Shown in pieces: positions 6,835 through 26,018 of a stretch of DNA of 64,000 nucleotides; position 1 is the first letter of the stretch; every line of letters starts with the position of its first letter. The position numbers were made by a program, and so were the translations under genes. The stretch is taken from the NCBI GenBank assembly GCA_942493315.1, contig OW818690.1, forward strand, positions 2,503,275 to 2,567,274, read 5' to 3'. Under the pieces are notes generated by a model that worked only from the letters and a program-made list of their open reading frames with translations, was not told the DNA's origin and made no database searches. This DNA comes from an uncultured Bacteroidota bacterium (GTDB lineage: Bacteria > Bacteroidota > Bacteroidia > Bacteroidales > WCHB1-69).

Positions 6835-7635
6835 ATGAAAAAACAAATAATACTCTTTTTCATTTTTATATCAATTTTAATTTCCAGCCTTCAGGCTCAA
6901 ATTAAGATCGAAATTTCAACAGAAAATAAAGATTCTGTTAACTTCTTCCAATTGAATGAATTTTATTTTGTACATCATATTTTTTTCGATTCCTTTTTTC
7001 TTACAGATCTCTATAAACAATTGAATTATGAAGAAATGAGTTTTATTGTTAATACTCTTTTATACAAGATTAACAATAAAGATGCAGTTAATGTGATTAT
7101 TAAAAATAAAAAATTTCCGGATGCACATTTGACCTATTTTGTGAAAGAAAATACTGACAATGGAACCCTTTTGGCTATGTTAACAACTTTCCATACTGAA
7201 AAAAGGAAGTTTACAAAAAAAATGGATCCTGAAAAATCATTAGCAAGATGGTATTTTGTTAAAGGGGATAAATTAGTATATCGAAAATTTTTATATTCAA
7301 AAGAATTAGAAAATGAAAAAAAAGAGAGTTCTTTATCTGACCTTATTGAATTTTATATGTTTGATAGTAATTTCGAAAATGATACATTGGTAAAACAATT
7401 AATCGATAGTGTTTTGAATAATAACAACGCATCCAAAGAAGATGTTTTTTATGCAAAGATTTATTTAGGAGAGTATTATTTGTTAAATAAAGATTTTGAG
7501 AATGCTGAAAAATCTCTTTCTGAATTGAAAAATTATTTTGAATTGAATGAAAACAATGGATTAGAATCTTATTATAAAGATATTGTAAATCTTGCAGAAA
7601 CCGAATTCGAAATGATGAAAAGATTACCAAAGTAA
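6835..7635 (+). CDS. Hypothetical secreted protein
   Basis: ORF 6829..7635. The ATG at 6835 gives signal peptide MKKQIILFFIFISILISSLQAQ. Confidence 0.55.
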   Translation: MKKQIILFFIFISILISSLQAQIKIEISTENKDSVNFFQLNEFYFVHHIFFDSFFLTDLYKQLNYEEMSFIVNTLLYKINNKDAVNVIIKNKKFPDAHLTYFVKENTDNGTLLAMLTTFHTEKRKFTKKMDPEKSLARWYFVKGDKLVYRKFLYSKELENEKKESSLSDLIEFYMFDSNFENDTLVKQLIDSVLNNNNASKEDVFYAKIYLGEYYLLNKDFENAEKSLSELKNYFELNENNGLESYYKDIVNLAETEFEMMKRLPK

Positions 7636-7649
7636 TCATTCGGGAGTAT

Positions 7650-8740
7650 TCTGAAACCTGTGTCAGTATCTTAGTTCAATCCTAATTCAAAGCCGTCAGA
7701 GCATTTGAATTAGGGTTGGACAAAGATACTGAATTATCGTAAATGTTTTTCATATCTTTCACCAAATTTTTCAATTAATTCAATTTGTATTGGTTTCCAG
7801 TTAAAAACTACTTTATTCCAGGATTTTTTATTGTACATAAGCGTTAAATAAAGTTGTTTAATCAGTCCTTTGTCATTGCTCCATCCTCCTTTAGATTTAG
7901 TTACTTTTCTCATGACTCGATGAACTGCTTCAACTGGATTTGTAGTATATATCATTCTTCTAATATTGGGTTTATAATCTAAAAATGGGATGAAGGAATC
8001 CCAATTATTTCTCCAATGATCGATCAACCCTTTATACTTTTTACCCCATTTTTCTTCACAAGATTCCAATGCAAGTTCAGCTTCTATTGCGTTTGTAGAT
8101 TGGTAAATAGCTCTTAAATCAGCACATACAGCTTTCATATCGCGATCACTGACAAAGCGAGTAGAGTATCTAATCATGTGAACTACACAGCGTTGTACAA
8201 TTGCTTTTGGAAAAACAGATTCCAAAGCGTCTTTAAATCCGGCTAACCCGTCAATACAGAAAAATAGAACATCTTCTACTGAATGCCCTCTTGCATAGAG
8301 ACTTAGAATAATTTCATCCATCCCTGTTGTTAACTCTCGCTCCCAGTTCTTGACCATGATCGGTTCATATTCTCCATTCCGATCTCGTGGGGTATTGATA
8401 GATAACATGCCGCCAGTACTTCTGACTTGTTTCTTTTTAAAGCCATTTTTTCTGTTATTCTTCTCTGATACAGATTCTTCTAAATAACTTTCCAATTCCC
8501 CTTCTAATGATAAATTTACCATTCTTTGTAATAAATCAGTAAAAATACCACTCTCTCCAAACAATGGATTGCCTTGATATAATCCACTGATCATGGCTTT
8601 TTGTTCATCTCTATCAGGTATAATTTTGTCAATTTCTTCTTGCAGTTCTTCCTTCCTACTTCTTCTTTTGATTGTCTTTTTCATGTGTCAAATTTGTTTT
8701 TTCAAAATTAATGTTTTTTCCTTTTGACACAGATTTTAGA
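7650..8740 (-). mobile_element. IS256-family element, internally deleted
   Basis: Terminal inverted repeats TCTGAAACCTGTGTC (7650-7664) and GACACAGATTTTAGA (8726-8740), 13/15 complementary, bracket the transposase ORF. At about 1.09 kb it is shorter than typical family members. Confidence 0.7.
7734..8684 (-). pseudogene. IS256 (mutator-type) transposase lacking a central segment
   Basis: N- and C-terminal family blocks are present (YARGHSVEDV ... DGLAGFKDALESVFPKAIVQRCVVHMIR ... TTNPVEAVHR). The roughly 90-110 aa normally between them, which carry the first catalytic Asp, are absent (junction ...SVEDV|LFFCIDGL...). Confidence 0.65.
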
Positions 8741-8765
8741 ATAGTCTCAATCATTCCTATTATTT

Positions 8766-9212
8766 GTTACCTGTTACCTCTTACCTGTTACCTCTTACCT
8801 GTTACTTCTTACCTGTTACTTCTTACTTCTTACTTCTTACCTGTTACTTCTTACTTCTTACTTCTTACCTGTTACCTCTTACTTCTTACCTGTTACCTCT
8901 TACTTCTTACTTCTTACTTCTTACTTCTTACCTCTTACTTCTTACTTCTTACCTGTTACCTCTTACTTCTTACTTCTTACTTCTTACCTGTTACCTCTTA
9001 CCTCTTACCTCTTACCTCTTACCTCTTACCTCTTACTTCTTACCTGTTACCTCTTACTTCTTACTTCTTACTTCTTACTTCTTACCTGTTACCTCTTACT
9101 TCTTACTTCTTACCTGTTACCTCTTACTTCTTACCTCTTACTTCTTACTTCTTACTTCTTACTTCTTACTTCTTACCTCTTACTTCTTACTTCTTATCTC
9201 TTCCTGTTACTT
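8766..9212. repeat. About 74 tandem copies of the degenerate hexamer [C/G]TTAC[C/T]T
   Basis: Read directly. Only two positions vary. Lies between the IS256 end and the operon promoter. Confidence 0.95.
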
Positions 9213-11594: not shown

Positions 11595-14500
11595 ATGAGT
11601 GAATTAATCAATATAAAATTAAACGGTAATAAATTAAAAGTTTCCCCGGGTGAAACCATTTTAAATATTTGTCTGGAACAAGGTTACGATATTCCTCACC
11701 TTTGCCATGATCCCAAACTGAAACCATTTTCATCCTGTTTTGTTTGTGTGGTGGAGATTAAAGGATATAAATCTCATCAACCTTCCTGTTCAACGATAGT
11801 TCAAGAGGGAATGGAGATCTATACGGATACTGCTGAAGTGAGAAAATCACGAAAAATGGCTTTAGAGTTAATGTTGAGTAATCACTATGCCGACTGTTTG
11901 GCTCCTTGTACTCAAACCTGTCCAGCAGGTGTTGATATTCAAGGATATCTCTCTTTAACCGAGAAAGGTTTGTTTCAACAAGCAGTTGAGTTGATCAAGG
12001 AAACAAACCCATTACCAGCTATTTGCGGTCGTGTTTGTGTACGACCTTGTGAAGATAAATGCCGCAGACAATATACTGATGATGGATCTCCTGTTGGGAT
12101 CGATTACCTCAAAAGATTTGTTTCTGACTTTGATTTAGTTTCTGAATCTCCTGTTACTCCAAAAGTGAAAGAATCTACCGGTAAAAAAGTGGCGATTATT
12201 GGTTCCGGTCCTGCAGGATTAACAGCTGCTTATTACCTTCAAATTGAGGGTGTGCAGGCTGATATTTATGAAAAAGCCGAAGGAGTAGGAGGGTGGTTGC
12301 GCTACGGAATCCCTGAATACAGATTACCTAATGCTATCGTAGATCAGGAAGTGGCCAATATTACAAAATTGGGCGTTCAGATCTTTACGAATCAAGAGTT
12401 GGGCGTAAATCTACAATATGAAACCTTAGATCAAAATTATGATGCTGTTTTCATGGCCATCGGTGCTCAAAACGGTGATTTATTAGGTATAGGCGAAAAA
12501 AATGCTCCCAATTTAGTATCAGGAATCGATTTTTTAAAGAATAATGCCTTAACCAATAATGAAACTAACCTTACTGGGAAACGTGTAGTCGTGGTAGGTG
12601 GTGGAAATACAGCGATGGATTGTTGTCGCTCAGCCCGTAGATGTGGAAGTGAAGATGTAATTGTGTTATACCGCAGAACAGAAGCAGATATGCCGGCTAA
12701 TCCAATAGAAATTCACGAATCTAAATTAGAAGGGGTTCAGTACATTTTTCTTGCAGCTCCTGTTGATGTTTATTATGATGAGCAAGGTAATCTTACCGGT
12801 TTGAAATGCATCAAAATGAAAGCTGAAAAGGTGCCTGGCTCTAGAAGATCCAATATTGTTCCTATCGAAGGTTCTGAATTTGACCTTCCTTGCGATTTGG
12901 TTTTGCCTGCTACCGGTCAGAAGATTCAGTATGAAGTGTTAGATCATATCAATCAATATTATCCTGATCAGGATCTTCAGTTAAACAAGTGGAAAACCCT
13001 TGATGCCGACGAATCTACGATGCAAATGAATATTCCAAAGATATTCGCTGCAGGTGATGCAGTTACGGGTCCAACCAATATCATTCAAGCGATTGCCGGT
13101 GGTAAAAAAGCGGCTCAGTATCTGACTGCTTTCGTTTTAGGTTTGCCTTTTGAAATCCCTAAAAAACCATTTATTAGTACCAAAGATTCTTTTGCTAAAC
13201 AATCGAAAGAGTTGTATTTGAATAAGTTTGAATATCAACCAAAAAACGAAATGCCCGTTCTTGAATCTCAAAAAAGAGATAATTTTAAAGAAGTTGAACT
13301 TGGATATCAATCTGTTGAAGAGGTTCAAAATGAGGTGGCCAGATGTCTGGAGTGTGGTTGTGTAGCTTTTTATGATTGTGATTTGCAGAAGTATTCTACT
13401 GAATATGAAGCAGTTCAAACTCATTATAAAGGGGATTATCAGGTGTTTGAAAGAACAACAGCTCATGAAAAATTAGAGCTGGATAATCACAAATGTATCC
13501 TTTGCGGTCGCTGTGTGAGAGTTTGTAAAGAGTATTCCGGAAATCGGGTGTGGGAGTTCTTTAAAAGAGGTTCCAAAACATACATTTCAGTGAATATGGA
13601 AAACGATCTCTCTGAATCTAATTGTGATGCCTGCGGATTATGTATTGATACTTGTCCAACAGGTGCTTTAACAGAAAACTTTTCTTTCAAAATATTACCT
13701 GCTCCTTTTGAAAAGTTACCGGTTATCGACCCATTCGGATCTGAAGGTTTTGAAGCAGATCTCCTTGAATATAAAGGAAATATTTATGGAGCTACAGCCA
13801 GAATCGGAATCGTAAATCATAAAGGATTGATTAATAGAGATCTATTTTTTAATTATCCTATTTTTAATAAATCGAACCGAATCAAATCGCCAATGGAGAG
13901 AGTGAATGGTAAATTGGTGCCGATCACTTTACAACAAGCTCTTGAAAAAATTAAAAAAGCGGTCAGACAAGTAGATAATGCAGATAACATTTTGTTGGTT
14001 TCTCCTGAAATGACCAACGAAGCAATGTATATGGTTCAAAAGTGGGCAAGAGTTGGTTTACAAACCAATTCTATTGGATCACCCTATTTTATGAACCGAT
14101 CTAAAGCTTCCAATTTAGATAAAAATGATATTTTACCACTTCAAGAACTCGAAGGTGCAAAACAAATTTTTGTTTTAGGTGGCAATCTTCCTCAGGATCA
14201 TCCTGTTATAAGTCATTTAATTCAAAATCATCGTTATTTTCATAAATCTGAAATCACTTTTATTACACCCGAACAAAACCATCCCTATAGTTTCCGTACT
14301 GATCATACTTTGAAAATTGCTGATTTATACTATTTTATTAAAGCAGTTTGTCATTATTTGGTTCATACTGAAAAAATGTTCGGAATTTTTGTAAATGGAT
14401 TAGCTAAAGAGTGGACATCCTATCGCGAGGCAATTTTAAATTATGATTATGAAGATTTACTAATTAAAGCAGGTGTGGATGAATCAATGATTGAAAATTT

Positions 14501-18257: not shown

Positions 18258-19058
18258 ATGAAAATCACATTTTATAAGTATCATGGTGCAGGCAACGATT
18301 TTGTAGCCATAGACAATAGAATTTATCAAAATTTTTCTTCTGAAACAATTCGGTTTTTATGTGATCGGAAGTTTGGTATTGGTGCAGATGGTGTTTTACT
18401 GATCCAAAATGGTACCAATAACGTTGATTTTCATCTGGATTATTACAATTCTGATGGAAATGTAGGTTCACTGTGTGGCAATGGAAGTCGCTGTGCAGTT
18501 GCTTTTGCCCACGATTTAAAAATCATTCAATCCAAAACCCTTTTCAGTGCTTTTGATGGTATTCATGAAGGTTGCTATCAAAATGAAGAGGATGTATGGG
18601 TTTCCATGAACGATGTAAATACCATTGCATTTTTGGAAGATGGTTATTCTTTAAACACTGGATCTCCCCATTTTGTTACTTATGTGGATGATATTCAAAA
18701 TGTTGATGTGTACAATTCCGGTAAAAAAATCAGAAACGATACTCGCTTTCCGGATGGAATTAATGTAAATTTTGTTTCACCATTTCAAGATGGTATTTTC
18801 GTAAGAACTTTTGAAAGAGGTGTTGAAAATGAAACATTGTCTTGCGGTACAGGCGTAACAGCCTCTGCATTAATACATACTATCCATCAGAACTATCCCG
18901 ACGGATCACATCAGGTCAAACTTTATGCGACCGGTGGTAATTTTATTATATCCCTAAACAAAAAGAGCACTCATTTCACTAATATTATCCTCCAAGGACC
19001 CACCAAATTCGTTTTTAAAGGGGAGATTGAAATGAGCAAATTAGCAAATGGGTTTTAA
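18258..19058 (+). CDS. dapF: Diaminopimelate epimerase
   Basis: YHGAGNDFV, CGNGSRC, SPHFV and ETLSCGTG motifs. The last codons are encoded by the TTAGCAAA/GGGTTTT repeat module. Confidence 0.9.
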   Translation: MKITFYKYHGAGNDFVAIDNRIYQNFSSETIRFLCDRKFGIGADGVLLIQNGTNNVDFHLDYYNSDGNVGSLCGNGSRCAVAFAHDLKIIQSKTLFSAFDGIHEGCYQNEEDVWVSMNDVNTIAFLEDGYSLNTGSPHFVTYVDDIQNVDVYNSGKKIRNDTRFPDGINVNFVSPFQDGIFVRTFERGVENETLSCGTGVTASALIHTIHQNYPDGSHQVKLYATGGNFIISLNKKSTHFTNIILQGPTKFVFKGEIEMSKLANGF

Positions 19059-19262
19059 GGTTTAAGGTTTTAGTTTTCAGGTTTTAGTTTTCAGGTTTCA
19101 GTTATCAGTTGTTTAAAGGTTGAACGCTTCGCTGTTTAAAGGTTTAAAAGTTGAAACGTCACTAAACCCTTAATCTCTTAATTTGTAATTCGTATTTCGT
19201 AAATTTTTAATTTTCCCCTTGTCCCTTTCCCCTAATTAGCACATTAGCTTATTATCACATTA
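19037..19262. repeat. Mosaic of short degenerate tandem repeats, mostly 7-nt period
   Basis: GGTTTAA x2, GGTTTTA/GTTTTCA alternating, GTTATCA, TTTAAAGG units, CACATTAGCTTATTAT x2; read directly. Confidence 0.85.
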
Positions 19263-19274
19263 GCTTATTAATCA

Positions 19275-19484
19275 GGGCGTTCCCCTTTGTCTACGCTCAA
19301 CCCAATTCCCCACTCATCGAATATTAAAACCGTCGCTTGCCAAAGGGTCGGTCTCCGGCCTGTACTCCTCGTTTCGCTGCAAGGGTCTGATCGGCCGGGC
19401 AGTAGCTCCTCCGTCGCTCTGCCCGATCCGTCATACCCTAAGCAGCTCAACTTGCGGGGTACTTGGCCTGCGACCTAACGCTCC
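19275..19484. repeat. GC-rich intergenic element (family member 1; possible structured RNA or MITE)
   Basis: Starts GGGCGTTCC and ends CCTAACGC. Shares blocks CAACCCA..ATTCC.CAC and GTACT..TTCGCTGCA with 53196-53374. Its 3' 46 bp repeats 4859-4904. Internal hairpin GATCGG(CCGG)GCAG...CTGCCCGATC. Confidence 0.7.
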
Positions 19485-19569: not shown

Positions 19570-20043
19570 ATGAAAAAAGTTAATATTGAAAAGTTTCAAA
19601 TTGGACAGGAAGAATCGATTTATAAATTGATTAAAAAAGTGTATGATGAATTCGTTTCCATTGATTATTCTGAAGAGGGAAATCAATTTTTTTATGATTG
19701 GATAAACCCTGCTAAAATTTCCGAACGACAAAAAAATCAAGTGAATTTACTCGTAGCCGTAGTAGAAAATCAAATTGTTGGAATGATTGAAATCAGAGAA
19801 AATCTATATATTTCATTGCTATTTGTTGATAAAGCGTTTCATGGAAAAGGTATTGCGAAAAAACTTTATCATGAAGCATTACAAATGCTGATCCAAAGAG
19901 ATCCAAATATTACAAAATTTTATGTACATGCTTCACCATTTTCAATTCCAATCTACCAAAAACTGGGATTTAAAGAAACAGATACTATGCAGGAAAACAA
20001 TGGTATAAAATATGTACCAATGGAAATGATGGTCGGGAAATAA
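19570..20043 (+). CDS. GNAT-family N-acetyltransferase
   Basis: VDKAFHGKGIAKKLY acetyl-CoA-binding motif; size 157 aa. Confidence 0.8.
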   Translation: MKKVNIEKFQIGQEESIYKLIKKVYDEFVSIDYSEEGNQFFYDWINPAKISERQKNQVNLLVAVVENQIVGMIEIRENLYISLLFVDKAFHGKGIAKKLYHEALQMLIQRDPNITKFYVHASPFSIPIYQKLGFKETDTMQENNGIKYVPMEMMVGK

Positions 20044-20092: not shown

Positions 20093-20357
20093 ATGGATTT
20101 TAAGAGTGTTTTTGTTGAATATCTAAAAAATAATTTCACTTTCAATCAGGATGAAATGGATTTAATTTATAGTTATTTTAATCAGGAATATATAAAAAAA
20201 GAAAACCCATTGGTAGTTGCCGGAAAAAGATATACCAAAATAGTATTTGTGATTAGCGGTATTTTTAGAGTTTTTGTAATTGACCCTAAAGGAGATGAAG
20301 TTGTAAAAAATTTTGTTGAATCGAAAAGTTTTTTTGCAGATATTCGAAGTCTTGACA
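20093..20357 (+). pseudogene. Crp/Fnr-type cNMP-binding regulator, N-terminal fragment truncated by an IS
   Basis: N-terminal beta-roll-like sequence (KIVFVISGIFRVFVIDPKGDEVVKNF) runs into the IS5 inverted repeat. No HTH half follows. Confidence 0.55.
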
Positions 20358-21838
<1,481 letters not shown>

Positions 21839-21997: not shown

Positions 21998-22005
21998 TAT
22001 ATTTG
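21998..22005 (+). promoter_or_regulatory. Bacteroidota-type -7 box TATATTTG
   Basis: Consensus match about 290 nt upstream of the next ORF (22294). Confidence 0.4.
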
Positions 22006-22293
22006 CGGACTAAAAGAGAACTTAATCTTCCCTTTCATCACTTTCTGACCCAATCTCAACAGAATACAAATAGCCGAGGTTAGTAGCACAAAATGTTACT
22101 GACATCGGCGAAGCCGTAGAAAGAGGTAAGAGAAATATTATGAGTTCATTTGTTAAATGATAATAAAAAAATTTAGAATATTATAAAAGCAATTATACAA
22201 CTAAAAACATACGGTTATCCACCTAAAATGGGAAGCTAACCGCAATAAAGAAGGAAACAGTTACGGTTATATACAAGTTAGCAGCAATTAAAA

Positions 22294-22839
22294 ATGAATA
22301 AATACTTTCTCTTCATAATGTATTTTCTACTTTTCGGTTGTCAATCTTCTGACAAATCTGAAAGCAAAAATAATTCCATAACAACTGCGACTGCAAAAAT
22401 GGATACGAGCAAAACAGACTCGGTCATATCTTCAAAGACAACTATTATTGATACGCTTGAGCTTAAAAAGTTTTGGAATGATTGTATGTTGCCAATTATG
22501 AGTTTGGACAAAGACCAATTAAAACAAATTGTCAACTTTCCATTGGCTGGTGACTGGGGACATATGGTAGGACTAAATAAACCTGAAGAACAATGGACAG
22601 AAAAAGAATTCTACAGCAATTTGCAAAAACTTTTTTATCCAGAATACTTAGACAAATTAAAAAAACAAACCTACAAAGACATTAACGTCTATCAACAAGA
22701 CAATGGAGAAATTAATTTACTTGTGACTGCTAATTTTGAAATGACAGTTGACAATTTCAAAACAGAATCTTCAACCATTCTTAGATTTAAGAAAATAAAC
22801 AACAAATGGAAGTTATACGTAATTTCCCATGCAGGATAA
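22294..22839 (+). CDS. Hypothetical lipoprotein
   Basis: Lipobox LLFGC; no motif recognised. Confidence 0.55.
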   Translation: MNKYFLFIMYFLLFGCQSSDKSESKNNSITTATAKMDTSKTDSVISSKTTIIDTLELKKFWNDCMLPIMSLDKDQLKQIVNFPLAGDWGHMVGLNKPEEQWTEKEFYSNLQKLFYPEYLDKLKKQTYKDINVYQQDNGEINLLVTANFEMTVDNFKTESSTILRFKKINNKWKLYVISHAG

Positions 22840-22849
22840 TTCAACTGCT

Positions 22850-22972
22850 GCTAACAAACGCTAAAACTAATGTGGCCTCGTTCCCGTTGACAATGAAAAA
22901 AAACAATAAATAAAACCAACTCGCTAGGAGCGTGAAGAGTAAGCCACACTAGTCTTAGCGTCAGGCGTTAGC
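22850..22972. other. attC-like imperfect palindrome (candidate recombination site)
   Basis: Arms at 22850-22876 and 22943-22972. Pairing is 6 bp outer (GCTAAC/GTTAGC), an unpaired asymmetric spacer, then 6+4+6 bp with two mismatches, around a 66-nt centre. Confidence 0.45.
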
Positions 22973-22994
22973 GTGCATACAAACTTAAAAAATA

Positions 22995-23789
22995 ATGAGA
23001 CGAATCTTTTTTCTATTTTTTCTTTTGGTTTCAGTTGACATTTTTGGAACTGGTCAAATTCCTGATTATTTGATATACAAAGGGGATACACTTCGTTTAT
23101 ATGCCAATCCTCTGGAATCTTATTTTAATTTTTGGCATAAAAGGCCCACAAAACTATTTGATGAAATAGGGTTTAATTCAACAGCTACCTGGAGGGGGTA
23201 TATTGGTTATTGGGAATTAAGAAATGATAGTTTGTTCCTTAAAAGATTAGAGGGTGATACATGTGACATTGATTTATCGCTAATATTTAAAAAGAGTATA
23301 AAAAATGGAGAAGTTTTTGCATATTGGGTTAATGAGAATTTGCTTAATCCTTATGGTAAGAGAATATATTATATTCATATGGGATATAGTTCATTCTACG
23401 AATTTGAAAGAGAATTTATTTTCAAAAAAGGGATTTTGAAAGATACCTTGTTTTATGATAATTCCAAATCTAAGGAAAGTCAATACACGGAAGATCCTAT
23501 TCTATTGAAAGAGTATATTACATCAAATATTAACTATTCGAATATTACAAACGATCCTTATAAAAATTCAAGAGTAATATTAGAGATACAAAATGTTACC
23601 GAGGAAGGGAAAATAGATAGTGTGATAGTTGTAGAAGGTAATGATGAAGAAAGAAATAAAGAAGCTATTAGAATAGTTAAATCAATTCCTGAATGGACTG
23701 TTATTTTTTCGAGAGGAAAACAAATTCAATTATTTTGGTATCTATTTGTTGAATTTGGAAATAAAAAAGATGAAGATAACGCACGCTAA
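22995..23789 (+). CDS. Hypothetical secreted protein with TonB-C-like C-terminal region
   Basis: Signal peptide. The C-terminal ~70 aa resemble a TonB C-terminal fold pattern (weak). The stop codon lies inside a CGCTAAC box. Confidence 0.5.
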   Translation: MRRIFFLFFLLVSVDIFGTGQIPDYLIYKGDTLRLYANPLESYFNFWHKRPTKLFDEIGFNSTATWRGYIGYWELRNDSLFLKRLEGDTCDIDLSLIFKKSIKNGEVFAYWVNENLLNPYGKRIYYIHMGYSSFYEFEREFIFKKGILKDTLFYDNSKSKESQYTEDPILLKEYITSNINYSNITNDPYKNSRVILEIQNVTEEGKIDSVIVVEGNDEERNKEAIRIVKSIPEWTVIFSRGKQIQLFWYLFVEFGNKKDEDNAR

Positions 23790-23874
23790 CTCGAGGTATA
23801 AAAAATAGCAGGTAAAAATTAAATTTAGGATTATGTTGAATATTTATAATAAAAATAACTTTAATAAGGAATTA

Positions 23875-24414
23875 ATGAAATATTGGGGATTTTTAATTAT
23901 AGTTTTATTTGTAAGTTGTAAAGCACTGAGAAATGAGGAGGAGCCCAAATCTGATCTATCTGTTCATTTTCAAAATCAAGGAGAGCAAGAAAAATATTGG
24001 GCTAAACAGTTTTTTGAGAAAAATTATGAAAAATCTGAATATTCTAAATTTAATGGACAAGTGAAAATTACTAACTCTGAAATTCAAATAGGAGAAAAAG
24101 ATTATATCAGCAATTTATATTCTAATCAAAAATACAATTTGATTTTTGAAAAAGGATTACTTTATCCAAGTCTTTTAATGAGTGACTCTTTGTATATTTG
24201 CTGTATTGAAGAATTACCTTTTTTATCTGATAATCCACAAATAAAAAGATTTAGATTTTTACTTTCAGTGAAAATTAGAAATATAGAACTTTTAAACCCA
24301 AGTGTTTATCTATTTGAACTTACTAATGAAAAAGCAACAAAAGATGATAATTGGGAAGTCTTTATAGAAAATGCAAAATTGACTTTCTTAAAATATGGGT
24401 GGTCTCAAATTTAA
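23875..24414 (+). CDS. Hypothetical lipoprotein
   Basis: ORF 23833..24414. The internal Met at 23875 gives lipobox LFVSC. Confidence 0.5.
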   Translation: MKYWGFLIIVLFVSCKALRNEEEPKSDLSVHFQNQGEQEKYWAKQFFEKNYEKSEYSKFNGQVKITNSEIQIGEKDYISNLYSNQKYNLIFEKGLLYPSLLMSDSLYICCIEELPFLSDNPQIKRFRFLLSVKIRNIELLNPSVYLFELTNEKATKDDNWEVFIENAKLTFLKYGWSQI

Positions 24415-24716
24415 AAAACAGCCCCTTTCAATCCTAAACCCAACTTAGATTTCTCCACGTGACAACAAAAAAATAAACTAACACTCGCTGGCCAATCGAT
24501 GCGAATATAGATAGTTTTAGCACTATACGTTAGCGACAAGCAAATAAGACATAAAAATTCAAATCAATATGAAAAAATTAAATACTTTATCAACTATTGA
24601 ATTCAAAACAGCAAAATCATTTTAAAAGAACTAAACAAAAATAAAATAACTTAAATTTCTTTTGCCAATTGACGCAATTGAACTCAAAATATTATTACAA
24701 CTTTATGGCTTATATT

Positions 24717-25253
24717 ATGAAAAACAAAATTTCCATATTAGTAATATTGCTGATTCTATTTACTTCTTGCACCAGTCATGATGCTAAAAAAATTAAATTA
24801 TATGGTTTTTCCAATCAAAAAGAAGTTAAATATGAAGAAGGTAATTCAATTTTTTATATTGGACTTAATGATTATTTTGAATATTTAAATAAAAGAGCAA
24901 AGGAAAAATTACTATCTAATGAAGATAGCTGTATTATCAAATATCTGGAAACTATTAAAGACAAATCTATTACAATATCTGATACAACTTCATTACATGG
25001 AATAAGAAAAGATATATTTTCAGATGGAAAAGATACTGTTTTGACAAGTATTAATATTTATCCGGTAGATAATTTTAGGTGGGCTATAATTTATTTTGCA
25101 AAAAAAGGAAATATTAAAATTTATAATAAGAAAAAGAAAAAATTTGTACAAAACATAATAGTTGACGAAATTGAATATTCAAATTCTGCTGAAGTTGTAA
25201 TAATGTTAGAAAATAAAGTTCAAATATTTGATCAACTAAGATGGGCATATTAA
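24717..25253 (+). CDS. Hypothetical lipoprotein
   Basis: ORF 24669..25253. The ATG at 24717 gives MKNKISILVILLILFTSC. Confidence 0.5.
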   Translation: MKNKISILVILLILFTSCTSHDAKKIKLYGFSNQKEVKYEEGNSIFYIGLNDYFEYLNKRAKEKLLSNEDSCIIKYLETIKDKSITISDTTSLHGIRKDIFSDGKDTVLTSINIYPVDNFRWAIIYFAKKGNIKIYNKKKKKFVQNIIVDEIEYSNSAEVVIMLENKVQIFDQLRWAY

Positions 25254-25379
25254 AATACAATAGTCACGTAGACAAACATTTATAACATCTTTTTAAAATT
25301 ATCTTCACATGGTACATTAAGTTTTATATCTATTAATGAAATAAGTTAAAATGTATGATCATGAGATAATTTGATTATC

Positions 25380-26018
25380 TCACTTTCTTCCAAAGTCCGC
25401 CGGAATCTCACCCCACTTTTTGGTGTTCCACTTGATGATTTGTGTGGTGAATGTGTTGTTGTTTAACCAAAATTCTGCTCGGGCTAAAAGATCAAAAATT
25501 ACATCGTTAGCATCGGTCGGTAAAACTATCGATTTGTGCTTTTTGTGCCTAACCCACGCAATGGCTGTGATACTGTCGGAGTATAAAGGTAATGGGGAAT
25601 TCATCTGCTTGAGAAGCGCTAACCCATGAACTAAAGCTAAGAATTCTCCAATATTATTACTGGCTCCCTGAAATGGTCCTTTATGAAACCAAAGCTCTTT
25701 AGTTGCTGAATAAACCCCTCTGTATTCCATCTGTCCTGTAACCATGTTACAGGCTGCATCTACCGCCAAACTGTTCAAAATGGGCTGCTCATTGTTTCCT
25801 GTTATGGAATAACTTGATCTATTTGATGTTGATGGATTTTTTTTGTAATATTTGGAATATCCATCCATAAATGCTTTATCTGCTTCAATTTTGGATTCAA
25901 ATGATTTATACTTGGCTCCATCAAATCCAAAAACCTGATCGTTACAAGATTTCCAATTGTCAAAGACGCCACAAATGCGCCCACTCCAAACTACATAGTA
26001 TTTTTGCTTAGTTGTCAT
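25380..26018 (-). CDS. rnhA: Ribonuclease HI with N-terminal hybrid-binding domain
   Basis: N-terminal KYYVVWSGRICGVFDNWKSCNDQV...KYKSFES motif plus an RNase H core (DAACN, GEFLALVHGL, YSDS). Confidence 0.85.
   Translation of the reverse strand: MTTKQKYYVVWSGRICGVFDNWKSCNDQVFGFDGAKYKSFESKIEADKAFMDGYSKYYKKNPSTSNRSSYSITGNNEQPILNSLAVDAACNMVTGQMEYRGVYSATKELWFHKGPFQGASNNIGEFLALVHGLALLKQMNSPLPLYSDSITAIAWVRHKKHKSIVLPTDANDVIFDLLARAEFWLNNNTFTTQIIKWNTKKWGEIPADFGRK

Follow-up and report, generated by a model that had tools for sequence, protein, structure and literature searches.

Genes and a palindromic site in the window

The stretch of DNA analysed here (the window) comprises 64,000 nucleotides (64 kb) of contig OW818690.1, an AT-rich segment of a Bacteroidota chromosome that carries dapF, a GldH-like lipoprotein gene, comM and dapA, and whose ComM shares 90% identity or more with that of 'Bacteroidetes bacterium HGW-Bacteroidetes-20'. 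Between the transposase gene of an insertion sequence (IS) and a convergent RNase H gene, four short open reading frames (ORF1 to ORF4) follow each other on the same strand; a Pfam search with these four returned no match, and an imperfect palindrome separates the first two. An earlier interpretation based on the letters alone (hereafter the sequence-only reading) had seen in this layout a possible integrase-less cassette array with sites resembling the attC sites of integrons. Our analysis lends this substantial support, and we put the probability at roughly 85% that the window holds the remnant of an integron-type gene cassette array, integrase-less and partly eroded.

The palindrome, termed E1 here (22849-22973, + strand), begins 10 nt after the ORF1 stop codon, between co-directional genes. 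From left to right, it is composed of an R'' core TGCTAAC (22849-22855), a left spacer of 2 nt (AA, 22856-22857), the 19-nt L'' arm (22858-22876), a central variable part of 66 nt (22877-22942), the 19-nt L' arm (22943-22961), a right spacer of 5 nt (CAGGC, 22962-22966) and an R' core GTTAGCG (22967-22973). A repeat finder run on the window returned the two arms as an inverted repeat with 89% complementarity, 66 nt apart, just as the sequence-only reading had described it, including the outer GCTAAC/GTTAGC pairing. Allowing for up to three mismatches, the arm sequence occurs at only these two places in the window, with 0.01 expected. The bottom-strand fold that had been proposed as a check is there, too: as single-stranded DNA, a 136-nt stretch with E1 and its outer GCTAAC/GTTAGC pairing folds at -25.8 kcal/mol on the bottom strand (z = -5.4, equalled by 0/200 shuffles) and at -20.6 kcal/mol (z = -3.7) on the top strand, and the two A.C mismatches of the top strand turn into G.T pairs on the bottom strand. 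Besides, the inner stem covaries with related copies on a metagenome contig (L040), reading TGTGGC/GCCACA in the window and GTGGGC/GCCCAC in L040, with pairing kept.

For an independent view of the site, a covariance model (R1) was built from nine sites of a separate array (contig L045) alone and run over the whole window with filters off. RNAalifold on these nine sites gave an R box and a 17-pair L box, with compensatory changes at 16 of 21 pairs. R1 matched 22849-22973 on the + strand over its full length (47.1 bits, E = 9.9e-10), which was the only significant match in 64 kb, followed by E1 on the opposite strand (13.9 bits), a match at chance level (11.1 bits) and a degenerate element described below, E2 (10.6 bits, E = 1.2). 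Beyond the window, R1 recovered L045 sites on which it had not been trained, the copies on contigs L040 and L041 (41.5 and 36.6 bits), sites on L042 and L043 (53 and 51 bits) and five sites on contig L058 (26-62 bits). Among the 18 best sites, whose alignment was fitted to the model and favours the structure somewhat, 95.4% of the pair cells do pair, compared with 63% upon shuffling and 27-42% when slid, and 17 of 21 pairs show a compensatory change. The inverse cores, ending in AAC on the left and starting with GTT on the right, are present in E1, and none of the 18 aligned sites departs from AAC and GTT; beyond these triplets, the purine/pyrimidine core consensus (RYYYAAC/GTTRRRY) is matched only partially. 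The element at 22849-22973 is thus an intact attC-type cassette recombination site, as supported by model, fold and geometry, albeit of a type unlike the textbook integron site.

Several other searches around E1 gave little. The window produced no match at Rfam gathering thresholds, and the cassette region only chance-level matches at E <= 10. Exact-pattern scans for the element returned three unrelated matches when one genome per species was scanned, chance matches only in viral contigs and, in the metagenome scan, the L003-type locus only. A sigma-54 promoter in the conserved centre (TGGCC-N-TGCG) was discarded, its spacing being one base short, as was TAGTTTTAG as a Bacteroidota -7 box, which is a poor match and has no -33 element. 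TAACAAACGC may resemble the start of Vibrio repeats, as the sequence-only reading suggested.

Cassette boundaries and related arrays

Integron cassettes are cut and joined between the G and the TT of the right core, so that TTxxxx opens a cassette and the complement of GTTxxxx opens the attC belonging to it. When checked on class 1 arrays, the integron cassettes arr-3 and aac(6')-Ib obey this rule. In the arrays considered here, cassettes start with TTAxxx and their own attC opens with the complement xxxTAAC. Cassette 1 of the window (22278-22967, + strand) is complete, consisting of ORF1 (22294-22839, a 181-aa lipoprotein-like product) and its own attC. The right-type (R') core at its 5' boundary, GTTAGCA (22277-22283), is the exact reverse complement of TGCTAAC at 22849, and the crossover would fall between G 22277 and T 22278; the GTTAGC box that the sequence-only reading had spotted upstream of ORF1 is, by this complementarity, the 5' core of the ORF1 cassette. 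Relatives carry GTTAACA or GTTAACT at this position. Cassette 2 (22968-23790, + strand) is truncated at its 3' end and contains ORF2 (22995-23789, 264 aa, TonB-C-like family). It keeps both boundary 7-mers, GTTAGCG at 22967 being the exact reverse complement of the left core CGCTAAC at 23784-23790, and its attC is deleted directly after this left core.

What was lost can be seen in relatives. The closest ORF2 ortholog (92% identity) is found on L040 together with three copies of the element, located at the contig start, between a HigB/HigA-like toxin-antitoxin pair and the ORF2 ortholog, and at the CGCTAAC that overlaps the ORF2 stop codon. In L040, and likewise with the L041 ortholog, the full element starts exactly at this CGCTAAC, and the identity of the window with L040 ends right after it; the box on the ORF2 stop codon, listed in the sequence-only reading as one of several recurring boxes, is therefore the left core of a lost attC. 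L041 carries an identical ORF2 ortholog behind a different element copy: 8 of 57 nt differ between L041 and L040 to the left of CGTTAGCG, after which the two are 100% identical. The comparison of the window with L040 follows the same pattern, homology beginning at CGTTAGCG. The same ORF2 unit hence stands behind three different upstream neighbours (in the window, L040 and L041), and the junction is the right-hand core. The opposite orientation, with the crossover in the left core and the attC upstream of its gene, was rejected, given that the break between L040 and L041 coincides with the right core.

The boundary rule extends to the other arrays. It is obeyed by 3/3 cassettes of L040 (GTTAGGG/CCCTAAC, GTTAGCG/CGCTAAC and GTTATGG/CCATAAC), by 9/12 evaluable cassettes of L045 and by 9/9 cassettes of L058. 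Over four arrays (window, L040, L045 and L058), exact 7-mer matches were counted in 23 of 26 cassettes, where shuffling gave a mean of 1.7 and a maximum of 8 in 20,000 shuffles. The two cores of one and the same site match exactly in only 2/23 pairs. Together with the break at CGTTAGCG and the R1 match (E ~1e-9), these boundary 7-mers are what speaks for the attC and cassette interpretation put forward by the sequence-only reading.

Homologs of ORF2 occur in four arrays. L045, reached via one of them, is a 16.5-kb contig with ~19 same-strand ORFs and elements of 130-133 nt between them. In this array, a group II intron (7150-9058, Rfam RF02001, 106 bits) on the opposite strand keeps the ORF2 homolog apart from its attC; the reverse transcriptase of the intron is encoded on the minus strand (7161-8483), and the gene call for the ORF2 homolog runs into the intron. 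Group IIC-attC introns have been described in such an arrangement (PMC3001079). At 13820-13857, the left and right cores of an L045 site abut (CGCCAAC|GTTAGCC) and the hairpin is absent, a collapsed site reminiscent of the window, where ORF2 is followed by no more than a left core (23784-23790).

L058, a 15.7-kb marine contig, was reached via a homolog of ORF3 (53%), which is a bounded cassette there. Two operons lie complete between 1870 and 9897, ars (ArsR to Acr3) and mer (MerR-like, MerT, MerB and MerA), and each is bounded in the manner of a single cassette by GTTACCC ... GGGTAAC plus an attC; the two cassettes measure ~3 and 5 kb. An ORF-less cassette of ~270 nt with its own long attC is present twice (1428-1697 and 12965-13258), one copy directly after a recombinase gene and the other inside the array. 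The assignment to the Bacteroidota refers to the window.

Site geometry and a candidate recombinase

The sites of this attC class are of uniform length (~125-133 nt). In the 18 aligned sites, the L-box arms are of equal or nearly equal length (19-20 nt, mostly 19/19, and 10/10 in one short site), the left spacer measures 2 nt and the right one 4-6 nt, and the centre spans 66-75 nt, except for the one short site of 59 nt overall. As controls, we used five clean class 1 sites from six plasmid integron loci, which were too few and too similar for a model of their own and served as structural controls only. Their spacers measure ~5 and 6 nt, and all five have extra bases on the left arm, e.g. GTT-C-AAGC facing GCTTAAC, in agreement with published descriptions of canonical sites (PMC5027507). 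The bottom strand is the more stable one in 19/22 sites of the class and in 5/5 class 1 controls, and because of this bias it is likely to be the recombination substrate.

A candidate for the enzyme acting on such sites is found at the head of the L058 array. There, a 371-aa Xer-like tyrosine recombinase is encoded at 188-1303, on the same strand as the cassettes, and its stop codon precedes the first core site by ~125 nt. All catalytic residues are visible in the alignment. The protein scores 214 bits on the NCBI XerA/integron-integrase model (cut-off 220) and 203 bits, in two pieces, on the TIGR02249 integron-integrase model (cut-off 265), thus remaining below both cut-offs. It is 32% identical to IntI1, with gaps of 31 and 12 residues at the extra segment of IntI1; its best solved relatives are archaeal XerA-type enzymes, and VchIntIA aligns to it in two pieces. 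A second array, L043, starts with the remnant of a similar recombinase gene (2-148), ~140 nt before the first core site, and this first core (GTTGTAG) has its matching counterpart in CTACAAC, with which the first L043 cassette ends. A search for the L058 recombinase in viral contigs found none.

Integron integrases employ the ~20-residue I2 domain to accommodate extrahelical bases (PMC4792948). A recombinase without I2 would fit attC arms of equal length that lack such bases, and we suggest that the cognate enzyme of the sites described here may be a Xer-like recombinase without the I2 insertion, like the one of L058. Enzyme and sites would then form a coherent pair. We found no description of cassette arrays with an I2-less recombinase in the literature.

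An eroding remnant at a variable locus

Downstream of cassette 2, the array of the window is in disrepair. ORF3 (23833-24414, + strand, likely start at 23875) encodes a lipoprotein-like product and has no recognisable 5' cassette boundary. It is followed by E2 (24438-24535, + strand), a degenerate attC whose left arm is deleted, whose centre is homologous to the E1 family from ~24452 on and which ends in the right core GTTAGCG (24529-24535). The sequence-only reading had seen in this second element a homolog of E1, in centre and right arm, whose left arm does not pair, and both statements hold: 24455-24535 is homologous to these parts of E1 (nhmmer E = 2.7e-21), and no fold of E2 was found. 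Judged by its letters, ACCCAAC (24438-24444), 7 nt before the conserved centre, is possibly the left core of E2. Further debris on the + strand (24569-24675) comprises an ORF stub (24569-24625) and an incomplete repeat of the element centre (24635-24675, a direct repeat with 71% over 41 nt); the stub has 18 codons (MKKLNTLSTIEFKTAKSF) and resembles the N-terminal part of a small peptide gene. ORF4 (24716-25253, + strand, alternative TTG start at 24669), again lipoprotein-like, is the last gene before the convergent RNase H gene (25380-26018). R1 did not recognise the AT-rich inverted repeat downstream of it (25296-25372), and the CGCTAAC box at 25617 was dismissed as an array core, lying inside conserved RNase H coding sequence and being coincidental.

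GTTAGCG occurs 5 times in the window (1.7 expected), four of these within 22967-25623, and GCTAAC 21 times (13.4 expected), eight of them within 22235-25623, so the boxes are locally enriched. The AGCTAAC box at 22234-22240 (+ strand), with neither an R1 match nor a matching GTTAGCT nearby, is not assigned to any cassette; it may be left over from an earlier site or reflect chance.

Upstream, the Pfam matches agree with the IS5 copy and the truncated regulator that had been proposed. A Crp/Fnr-type regulator gene (20093-20395, + strand), cut by the IS, retains only the N-terminal part with the cyclic nucleotide-binding domain (PF00027, E = 6e-5, 100 aa only), and the adjoining IS5/IS1182-family transposase ORF (20392-21816, + strand; DUF772, DDE_Tnp_1 and DDE_Tnp_1_6) occupies the side where a recombinase gene and attI would be expected. 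With neither of these present, and with an IS and a broken regulator in their place, the array has probably ceased to rearrange, short of a recombinase supplied in trans. The locus itself varies among relatives: where RNase H is ~78% identical, the spot upstream of its gene is occupied by a type I restriction-modification system, and the assembly of a 98.6% identical strain (L001, Logan SRR32222273) stops precisely where the cassette region has its right edge (window 25378). One intact site, deleted attC parts, the upstream IS with its broken regulator and the variable spot together mark the array of the window as an eroding remnant at a variable locus.

Some further features of this neighbourhood are recorded here in their own right. 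Roughly 290 nt upstream of ORF1, at 21998-22005, lies TATATTTG, and the ORF1 homologs in L002, L003 and L037 have boxes of a similar kind ahead of them; we take TATATTTG to fit the Bacteroidota -7 promoter box TAnnTTTG. In L003, a direct repeat of ~230 bp with a promoter-like box (60-290 and 2760-2950) flanks a three-gene block that starts with an ORF1 homolog, the second copy of the repeat lying ahead of a gene with a Bro-N domain. In the window, dapF and a GNAT gene (19570-20043) enclose a non-coding element of ~440 nt (19040-19480) with word-like short tandem repeats (ggtttaagg, ttttcagg, taattcgta and cacattagcttatta) and a GC-rich core, for which no Rfam, tRNA or tmRNA match was obtained. 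The reverse complement of an element of this type is present in L035 (7800-8660) and L036 (380-1240), beside the variable spot upstream of RNase H, and partial copies occur in L003 and L002.

Competing explanations and significance

In the mechanism that we propose, a cassette would consist of a promoterless ORF followed by an attC of ~125 nt that folds as a single-stranded hairpin, and a tyrosine recombinase would insert and excise cassettes as circles, with strand exchange in the right core, between the G and the TT of GTTAGCG, on the top strand. What remains in the window would then be an intact cassette 1, a cassette 2 without attC beyond its left core, and an ORF3/ORF4 region with a left-arm-deleted attC and fragments. 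The array works like an integron cassette array and carries the defining recombination signature; two features by which integrons are recognised in practice, namely extrahelical bases in attC and a neighbouring IntI with an I2 domain, are absent.

A number of observations weigh against this interpretation. Only one site of the window is intact, R1 scoring E2 at no more than 10.6 bits, and homologs of ORF1, which are present in other contexts, are accompanied in other genomes by a decayed element or by none. In line with the sequence-only reading, tblastn with IntI1 (the query being 100% identical to plasmid intI1), XerD and the L058 recombinase detected no tyrosine recombinase in the window, which covers 64 kb of a 3.47-Mb genome. 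R1 gave no true matches on canonical class 1 attC sites or arrays, so that what ties these arrays to classical integrons is architecture and the boundary rule, with no model common to both. Canonical attC sites are marked by extrahelical bases on the R''-L'' arm (PMC5027507, PMC4792948), which are missing from the class described here, nearly all of its 18 aligned sites having arms of 19 and 19 nt; this includes the window site, in which the sequence-only reading had advised looking for such bases. Finally, the mosaic evidence comes from metagenome contigs, not from sister strains at this exact chromosomal position, and the association with a recombinase rests on the L058 array and the L043 pseudogene remnant.

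Could the palindromes do without recombination altogether? A lineage-specific intergenic palindrome, be it akin to repetitive extragenic palindromic (REP) sequences or miniature inverted-repeat transposable elements (MITEs), or an mRNA hairpin acting as terminator or stabiliser, would account for the position of E1 just past a stop codon between co-directional genes and for copies that decay in some genomes. Yet the window contains no further copy of E1, as a dispersed repeat would; no T-run follows the hairpin on either strand, as would be expected of an intrinsic terminator (GTGCATACAAAC follows on +, AGCAGTTGAATT on -); and neither the complementarity between the 7-mer before a gene and the 7-mer after it nor the sharp homology break at CGTTAGCG would be explained, while stem sequences vary between sites and nonetheless remain paired. 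We regard this idea as largely refuted and scarcely credible. Highly improbable, too, is a mosaic gene order brought about by ordinary homologous recombination or gene conversion between similar intergenic sequences, with no dedicated recombinase. Elements of one genome are 80-90% identical over parts of their length, which could support such exchange, but the process does not create inverse-complementary 7-mers at both ends of a unit, and neighbouring sites in L045 and L058 differ strongly in their stems despite sharing the same geometry.

Within the reading of the window as an integron-type remnant, the integron might be an ordinary one, whose standard IntI with I2 domain resides elsewhere in the genome or was lost, whose geometry reflects lineage variation and to which the L058 recombinase is unrelated. 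The AAC/GTT cores, the boundary rule, the bottom-strand bias, the toxin-antitoxin cassette and the attC-associated group II intron are all canonical traits; moreover, extrahelical bases were reported to be dispensable for some attC sites (PMC5027507), and integrons have been reported in Bacteroidota (PMC8618304, PMC9668308). This alternative does not readily accommodate that all 18 aligned sites share (nearly) equal arms and a spacer asymmetry of 2 versus 4-6 nt, where class 1 controls have extra left-arm bases, nor that the L058 enzyme ends ~125 nt from the first core and lacks 31 and 12 residues at the IntI1 insertion, nor that the L043 array has the remnant of a like recombinase at a comparable place; we consider it unlikely, if well worth keeping in mind. 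Tentatively, and at somewhat less than even odds, we propose instead a distinct Bacteroidota integron lineage, with attC sites of fixed geometry (7-nt core, 2 nt, 19-nt arm, ~70-nt centre, 19-nt arm, ~5 nt, 7-nt core) that are devoid of extrahelical bases and recombined by an I2-less Xer-like recombinase encoded in cassette orientation.

Comparison with known systems delineates what is shared and what is not. Sedentary chromosomal integron arrays, such as the one with the Vibrio cholerae repeats, likewise consist of same-strand, mostly promoterless ORFs that are each followed by an imperfect palindrome of uniform length, with inverse AAC/GTT cores of which the right one hosts the crossover, with toxin-antitoxin cassettes and with a more stable bottom strand. 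They differ from the present case in that here the left arm has no extra bases (19 vs. 19 nt) and the spacers measure 2 vs. 4-6 nt, no IntI was found in the window, the host is a member of the Bacteroidota and the array of the window is short and eroded. Integrons whose integrase is oriented like the cassettes are known from the Treponema type, which L058 resembles in having the recombinase gene and all cassettes on one strand; unlike theirs, its recombinase has no IntI-specific insertion and stays below the integron-integrase cut-offs. The clusters of attC sites lacking integron integrases (CALIN; Cury et al. 2016, PMC4889954) are similar as cassette arrays without a neighbouring integrase, flanked by IS and decaying, but as usually defined they comprise two or more attC sites within 4 kb, whereas a single window site passes the model threshold. 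With one significant site only (E2 at 10.6 bits, cassette 2 reduced to a 7-nt left core), the window is a remnant of such a cluster rather than a CALIN in the strict sense. As for the group IIC-attC introns (PMC3001079), the L045 intron is like them in its strand, opposite to the cassettes, and in lying between a cassette gene and the attC of that gene, yet it is placed as group II only, and it occurs in L045, not in the window.

In summary, the cassette array that the window presents in a Bacteroidota chromosome is real, though eroded, and the related contigs harbour large, active-looking arrays with the same attC class. Reviews count the Bacteroidota among the phyla with integrons (PMC8618304, PMC9668308), while in the IntegronFinder 2.0 survey, Bacteroidetes yielded only In0 elements and one complete integron, in Salinibacter (PMC9024848). 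If a distinct lineage indeed exists, methods that require the IntI-specific domain would miss such systems, which could explain the near absence of integrons from surveys of Bacteroidetes (PMC9024848), and whole operons (mer, ars) would be carried as single cassettes. Should the pairing of recombinase and attC hold, it would provide a natural experiment on how integron recombination selects a strand and how it blocks exchange of the second strand. It would also mean that a major environmental and gut phylum may host a hidden reservoir of mobile cassettes, mercury- and arsenic-resistance operons included.

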